This document shows positions 37,579 through 51,998 of a stretch of 64,000 nt of DNA, piece after piece. The notes below the pieces were generated by a model. That model was given only the letters and a program-made list of their open reading frames with translations. It had not been told where the DNA came from and made no database searches. The stretch lies in the NCBI RefSeq assembly GCF_056712565.1, contig NZ_CM160072.1; one strand, 5' to 3'. How positions within the stretch are numbered: the stretch's first letter is position 1; each line of letters opens with the position of its first letter. Made by a program: the position numbers and the translations under genes.

Positions 37579-38813
<1,235 letters not shown>

Positions 38814-50757: not shown

Positions 50758-51111
50758 TTATTTCAGATGGTTAATCAGCATCGGAATCGCGTGTTCAACG
50801 TGCTCAACGGAAAGGCCAAACGCCACTTTTCCTTCAGCGATCATTTTGGCGATATGTTCGTCTTTCGCTTTAATGCCCGGCTTGGCAATGGTGCAACTTT
50901 TGTTATAGCCAATCACCGCGATAGCAATCGACAATGCCGCGCCCGCACCGGTATTACACGCACCGATGTAGTAATCCAGTTGCCCGGATTTCACTTTCAT
51001 TGCCGCTTCCATGTCGTTGTGAATGAAAACTTCAAAACAGCCAGGAGCCGTCGCTTCAATGGTTTTTTTAATCTGCTCACGCTGTAAGCCTGCAACGCCA
51101 ATCTTTTTCAT
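50758..51111 (-). CDS. yhfU: Uncharacterised protein YhfU
   Basis: ~117-aa ORF from MKKIGVAGLQ... Confidence 0.75.
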   Translation of the reverse strand: MKKIGVAGLQREQIKKTIEATAPGCFEVFIHNDMEAAMKVKSGQLDYYIGACNTGAGAALSIAIAVIGYNKSCTIAKPGIKAKDEHIAKMIAEGKVAFGLSVEHVEHAIPMLINHLK

Positions 51112-51121
51112 GAGTCTGTCC

Positions 51122-51998
51122 TTATTGGAAAAATTGAGAGGGATTTTCACGTAACATCACATCCACATCGGCCTGACTGAATCCTGACTGGCGCAATTGC
51201 GGAATAAAGGTGGTCAATAAAAAGTCATAGCCATAACCACCGTTGGCTTTTAAATGAGAGCGCCGCGTAATATCCATCGACAGCATGACGCGGTTCAGCA
51301 ACCCACGGTCACGTAGCGCATGGAGCATCGCAATGCGCTTTTCGTCCGGGTAGTAACTGTTCTTGCCGATGGTGTCGAACTGCACATACGCGCCGAGATC
51401 GATCATCTTCAAAATGTTGTCGAGATTGTCTTTCAGATCGCAGTGGCCGACGGTGACGCGCGAAAGATCAACTCCGTGGGCTTGCAACAGAGCCAGTTGC
51501 TCCAGCCCCATCGTGCTGAACGACGTATGCGTGGAGATCGGGCGTCCGGTCTGGTTATGTGCCAGCGCGGCGGCAATAAACACCTTCTCTTCCAGCGGCG
51601 TAATCTTCCCTTCGCTGGAGCCAATCTCCGCGATGATCCCGGCTTTCAGGTCAGTGCCATCGATACCCTGCTCAATTTCATCGACCATCTCCTGCGCCAG
51701 TTCCTGCACGCTGCGGGTCGCCACATGTTCCGGGAAAAACGCGTCCTGGTAATAACCGGTACAGGCCACCACGTTGATCCCGGTTTCGCGCATTACATCG
51801 AGCATAAATTGCACATTGCGCCCCATGTAACGGTTGGTCATCTCAATCACATTACGCACGCCCCGGGCCATCAGGTCGTTCATCTCCTGGCAAATGAACG
51901 CATACTGATCAAGGCGGCAGTCCGTTGTTTTTAAAGCCGGAAAGATCAATATGCAGATGCTCATGGGCAAGGGTGTAGCCCGTCGGATCAAAACTCAT
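51122..51998 (-). pseudogene. php: Phosphotriesterase homology protein Php, frameshifted near 51922
   Basis: ATG at 51998 (overlapping the yhfW stop) encodes [29 protein letters not shown] ending at 51909; the rest of the protein (DCRLDQYAFICQEMNDL...) is in another frame. Confidence 0.85.

Follow-up and report, generated by a model that had tools for sequence, protein, structure and literature searches.

The window, by which we mean the whole 64,000-nucleotide stretch of DNA that was analysed (NCBI RefSeq assembly GCF_056712565.1, contig NZ_CM160072.1), holds the cluster yhfZ-yhfY-yhfX-yhfW-php-yhfU-yhfT-yhfS between trpS and cysG/nirBDC, and within this cluster the php gene is interrupted. 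The best matches to the window include UTI89, NU14, APEC O1, S88, IHE3034 and ATCC 11775, which belong to phylogroup B2 and are of the ST95 type. In the best-matching genomes, intact php is an uninterrupted gene of 292 codons (WP_000006993.1), the length at which the original prediction had put it, and the intact or reconstructed product matches PDB 4LEF/1BF6 over all 292 residues (E~1e-195). Apart from a gap of 2 bp, the php of the window is 100% identical to that of UTI89 and of Z0117EC0054. The locus comprises the following features, all on the minus strand:

51122..51998, minus strand: php (phosphotriesterase homology protein; YhfV) locus, interrupted, 877 nt here versus 879 nt in intact genomes
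51995..51998, minus strand: ATGA, in which the start of php overlaps the stop of yhfW, a layout typical of translationally coupled genes
51909..51998, minus strand: open reading frame of the N-terminal fragment, with 25 native codons, then GLPP and a TGA at 51909-51911
51957..51965, minus strand: His12-Glu13-His14 (HxH), codons CAT GAG CAT, presumably the strand-1 metal ligands
51922..51924, minus strand: deletion junction, AAC GTG GAC changed to AAC G GAC, with GT (equivalently TG) of the Val26 codon GTG lost
51869..51871, minus strand: internal ATG (native Met44), with AGGAG 12 nt upstream, used by gene callers as the start of a 249-aa remnant in other php alleles that carry a lesion
51125..51922, minus strand: rest of the PTE domain, Asp27 to Gln292, 266 codons in the +1 frame, followed by the stop TAA at 51122-51124
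51626-51628 (Glu125), 51527-51529 (His158), 51443-51445 (His186) and 51272-51274 (Asp243), minus strand: four residues encoded in the +1-frame remainder
50758..51111, minus strand: yhfU, the next gene of the cluster, which starts 10 nt past the php stop

Alignment with the php of a reference genome, the check for which the original prediction had called, gives AACAACGTGGACTG in UTI89 and AACAAC--GGACTG in the window. Of the two events that had been proposed near position 51922, a 2-bp loss or a 1-bp gain, this alignment retains the loss and discards the gain. The sequence context had been described as non-homopolymeric, and indeed neither a homopolymer nor a tandem (dinucleotide) repeat lies at the junction, where microhomology is limited to 1 nt (G-T-G). 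From 51998 to 51909 the minus strand reads ATG AGT TTT ... CAT GAG CAT ... AAA AAC AAC GGA CTG CCG CCT TGA; the fragment thus has the predicted length of 29 aa from the ATG at 51998, with 25 rather than 24 native residues ahead of the shift. The overlapping open reading frame in the +1 frame (51122..51991, minus strand) reads ...DCRLDQYAFICQEMNDLMARG... and continues to the native C-terminus, ...ENPSQFFQ.

The metal ligands of the PTE family comprise the HxH motif of strand 1, a Glu of strand 4, a His of strand 5, a His of strand 6 and an Asp of strand 8. In PHP the ligands of the binuclear metal are reported to be H12, H14, E125, H158, H186 and D243 (1BF6 structure; Buchbinder et al. 1998). 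The codons for all six of these residues are intact in the DNA of the window, and the frameshift divides them two from four, in agreement with the earlier claim that it parts the HxH motif from the rest of the enzyme. When compared with the Pfam profile PF02126 (PTE), the 29-aa piece matches profile positions 1-25 (E=3e-7, 30.5 bits) and positions 25-298 are covered by the long piece (E=1.6e-133, 445.2 bits), each scoring above the curated cutoff of 22.4 bits, so that together the two pieces represent one PTE domain cut in two. No continuous open reading frame holds all of the ligands, as the loss of 2 bp after codon 25 brings a stop into frame at codon 30, and any product begun at Met44 is devoid of the HxH. 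As written, therefore, the php locus is a pseudogene and not a functional member of the PTE family.

The distribution of this allele was surveyed with a 100-nt probe centred on the junction, which was searched against 5,426 complete E. coli genomes. The probe matched 4,914 of them, all at 98.0%, the value that corresponds to the 2-base gap, and none of the 4,914 matched at 99% or above as the php allele of the window would; about 6% of complete E. coli genomes are without any php match. An exact 34-mer of the deletion junction was found in 0 metagenome contigs, and the control, an exact 36-mer of the intact junction, in 91. Exact look-ups in a collection of 15 billion proteins, made for the 29-aa peptide and for five plausible remnants, found only the 249-aa remnant, and this remnant gives no support to the allele of the window because every informative contig that encodes it has another lesion. 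The suggestion that the allele is common to other genomes was rejected, the junction probe, the 34-mer scan and the remnant look-ups having each returned no match for it, and, to judge from the sequence collections covered, the GT-deletion allele of php is so far private to this genome.

Public assemblies (Logan/ENA) show at least four more early php lesions of independent origin, on contigs that encode the 249-aa remnant:

L004: Q32*, CAG>TAG
L005: Q38*, CAG>TAG
L006, L012 and L013 (three samples): 1-bp deletion in a TTT run
L008: 1-bp deletion in a CCC run

On L008, yhfU is apparently split as well, into open reading frames of 37 aa and 80 aa. Four further contigs with the 249-aa remnant are cut at their ends and hence uninformative as to the lesion, and some of the contigs with php lesions are low-coverage metagenome contigs that may themselves hold errors. 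The occurrence of lesions elsewhere suggests that selection on the yhf operon has been relaxed in some strains.

Comparison of the whole 64,000-base window with its nearest complete genome, Z0117EC0054 (B2/ST95-like), yielded four differences, namely two SNPs and two deletions, none of which occurs in any RefSeq complete genome. In addition to the php deletion these are:

3998, in gspA (2594-4063, minus strand): synonymous SNP, G>A, that is, C>T at nucleotide 66 of the gene, shared with L014 and L016, two contigs that carry gspL Q277*
13433, in gspL (12605-13768, plus strand): nonsense SNP, C>T, Q277* (CAG>TAG), leaving a 276-aa product
~37934, in argD (37579-38798, minus strand; acetylornithine/succinyl-diaminopimelate aminotransferase): 1-bp deletion, a frameshift

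The two lineage SNPs are both G:C>A:T transitions. L014 is 100% identical to window positions 2605-19122 (16.5 kb) and L016 to positions 2605-13684 (11 kb), both SNPs included in each case, and the exact 276-aa GspL product is present on at least 24 Logan/ENA contigs, many of them from metagenomes. On the strength of such sequence matches, both SNPs are taken as genuine markers of a sublineage and gspL Q277* as a genuine pseudogene. The type II secretion cluster that holds gspL already has a pseudogene in gspE. In the nearest reference, hofN (L002, 1-3) and gspE (L003, 21305-22786) are both annotated as pseudogenes interrupted by stop codons; over gspE the window does not differ from that reference and so has the same gspE lesion, while hofN lies beyond the window end.

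In argD, one C of a CC is lost from the coding (minus) strand, where AATCCTCTGG becomes AATCTCTGG, and the frame shifts at about codon 288 of 406, altering ...STYGGNP. None of the 5,422 complete E. coli genomes that match here has the deletion, and no truncated ArgD (293 aa, counted from the native start) occurs in the 15-billion-protein collection, which includes assemblies of the same lineage. Relative to its own sublineage, then, the window has 0 private SNPs and 2 private deletions, those of php and argD, both of which frameshift coding sequences, and no lineage-specific SNP is present between window positions 28730 and 64000, so that contigs bearing php offered no marker by which to tie them to the gspL Q277* sublineage. 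Like the php lesion, the argD deletion may be either real or a consensus error.

The chances are about even, in our assessment, that php is a null allele in this strain, a strain-specific pseudogene that arose through a private 2-bp deletion. The 2-bp gap is the sole difference from the intact php of ST95-like genomes, php is dispensable and has been broken independently elsewhere, and the same lineage already holds a genuine pseudogene in gspL Q277*. All three inactivated genes (gspL, argD and php) are plausibly dispensable; argD, for its part, has backup transaminases. A 2-bp deletion outside any repeat is, moreover, not a typical platform error. A census of homopolymers in the window counted 252 runs of at least 5 bases (78 of at least 6, 13 of at least 7 and 2 of at least 8) with 0 length differences from the reference, and an assembly with none of 252 runs miscalled is one without the usual long-read or 454 error profile. 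An assembly of the homopolymer-error type was rejected on the basis of this census and of the C-GT-G junction, a rejection that leaves room for consensus errors of other kinds. Against a real null allele, the php allele has no independent confirmation in 4,914 genomes or in any metagenome contig, and two private frameshifts per 64-kb window would extrapolate to ~150 per genome. Natural divergence normally brings about ten substitutions per indel, as estimated in E. coli mutation-accumulation studies.

The contrary reading, to which we give somewhat less than an even chance, is that the deletion is an assembly or consensus error and that php is intact in the organism, the php and argD gaps both stemming from consensus calling or polishing of an imperfect, for example long-read, assembly. 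It would account for the fact that both substitutions are confirmed in independent assemblies and both deletions nowhere, the truncated ArgD being missing even from a collection with same-lineage assemblies, and 2 deletions against 0 SNPs is unlike natural divergence and fits a deletion-biased consensus error of ~Q45. The window also runs unbroken through tufA (18837-20021), while the 41.6-kb ENA contig from which L014 comes breaks off within tuf, which indicates that the source was a repeat-resolving assembly, probably long-read or finished, yet none of the 5,426 RefSeq complete E. coli genomes has its exact sequence. However, both gaps are outside homopolymers of 3 or more bases, and 252 of the 252 runs of at least 5 bases are correct, the opposite of the usual profile of ONT, PacBio CLR, 454 and Ion Torrent data, and a 2-bp loss in unique, non-repetitive sequence is uncommon. 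Neither junction has a Dam (GATC) or Dcm (CCWGG) site, and the php and argD sites share no significant motif, which argues against a systematic error linked to a motif or to methylation. To the eye the two sites are alike (GGCGGNANTCC), with 10 of 14 positions matching, but this likeness is equalled by 730 of 5,000 random site pairs (15%), and a motif-linked systematic error was rejected on that ground.

Three further explanations carry little weight. If both private deletions are genuine, they would point to an unusual deletion-only process acting at non-repeat sites without substitutions, with ~150 frameshifts genome-wide and rapid reductive evolution of an ExPEC lineage, which we regard as improbable. 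A deliberate or experimental change, in which the lesions would be real in the clone and absent in nature (a mutagenised, engineered or long-passaged laboratory derivative), is more doubtful still; of the four differences from Z0117EC0054, three do inactivate genes, but the nonsense SNP marks a natural lineage and recurs across many metagenomes and isolates, the window has no scars, cassettes or private substitutions, and chemical or mismatch-repair mutagenesis would give mostly substitutions. The least credible of the explanations is programmed or tolerated recoding, whereby ribosomes slipping by +1 (or -2) after codon 25 and before the TGA, for instance at CCG CCU UGA, would yield full-length Php of ~291 aa. 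A +1 shift anywhere in codons 24-29 would restore a protein of 291 aa in which all six ligands are present and no more than 4 residues are altered, with a predicted trans-frame peptide of ...KNNGLPPDQYAF... or similar, and a proline codon in the P site before a stop can give low-level +1 slippage. The arrangement is, however, not conserved, and because every other genome has the plain, uninterrupted reading frame, nothing has selected for recoding. Neither a prfB-like CUU UGA (CTTTGA) nor a Shine-Dalgarno-like stimulator is present in the 80 nt around the site, the longest A/T run at the site, an A5, is too short for transcriptional slippage, and the shifted codon CUU pairs poorly with tRNA-Pro. 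The lone heptamer, TTTAAAA, is out of phase (TTT AAA A), and slipping by -1 would leave the frame broken, as +1 or -2 is needed; the php site accordingly has neither the in-phase X XXY YYZ heptamer nor the frame-restoring -1 shift of programmed -1 frameshifting. With all of the +1 and -2 shift products listed and slippery and stimulatory motifs searched, no signal and no conservation emerged, and recoding was rejected. As a rough weighting, half of our belief rests with a real lesion and a little less than that with an artefact, and a small remainder is left to recoding or other causes.

If the null allele is real, a small deletion would have arisen spontaneously at a site with 1 nt of microhomology, in a gene that is dispensable. 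Read from its native ATG, php gives a 29-residue peptide that bears the strand-1 HxH ligands and ends at the TGA at 51909-51911, and the 266 remaining codons lie in the +1 frame; these would be either left untranslated or translated from an internal start such as Met44 into a product without the HxH. This Met44 product, a barrel minus strand 1 and two of the six ligands, would presumably be inactive. As neither piece could assemble the binuclear metal centre or fold into a complete (beta/alpha)8 barrel, Php activity would be lost, and the ~790 nt of ribosome-free mRNA may also expose yhfU, yhfT and yhfS to Rho-dependent polarity and so lower their expression. The strain would then be without Php, the function of its yhf operon may be weakened too, and the allele would count as one more slight sign that the yhf operon is dispensable in extraintestinal E. 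coli. To our knowledge the natural substrate of Php is not known, though the structure has been solved, and a full-text literature search for the physiological role of php or the yhf operon returned nothing. If the lesion is instead an artefact, the assembly would be flagged for indel errors, with argD as the second case, and pseudogene calls from this record would be untrustworthy without polishing. Under either outcome our understanding of phosphotriesterase-family enzymes and of recoding is unchanged: php is a known gene, its lesion is either a commonplace loss-of-function change or a commonplace error of assembly, no new element or mechanism is involved, and the allele itself is unrecorded and of little consequence.

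Among known systems, the +1 frameshifting of prfB (RF2) resembles the window in that most of the protein is encoded in the +1 frame, behind a short 0-frame reading frame that ends at a UGA, whereas the window is without the CUU UGA and the upstream Shine-Dalgarno stimulator of that system and its arrangement is unique to one genome. In comparison with E. coli Php (PDB 1BF6 / 4LEF; PF02126; amidohydrolase superfamily subtype II), for whose subtype 1BF6 is used as the representative (PMC12753220), the window holds the same gene with the six ligands encoded and has the identical operon order, yhfZ-Y-X-W-php-yhfU-T-S, but its frame is broken after codon 25 and no single polypeptide carries all six ligands. 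The other php pseudogene alleles of B2-type E. coli (L004-L013) differ from the window in that none has the GT deletion at codon 26, and resemble it in being disrupted in the first 40 codons, in their sequence downstream and in the 249-aa remnant open reading frame that is left.
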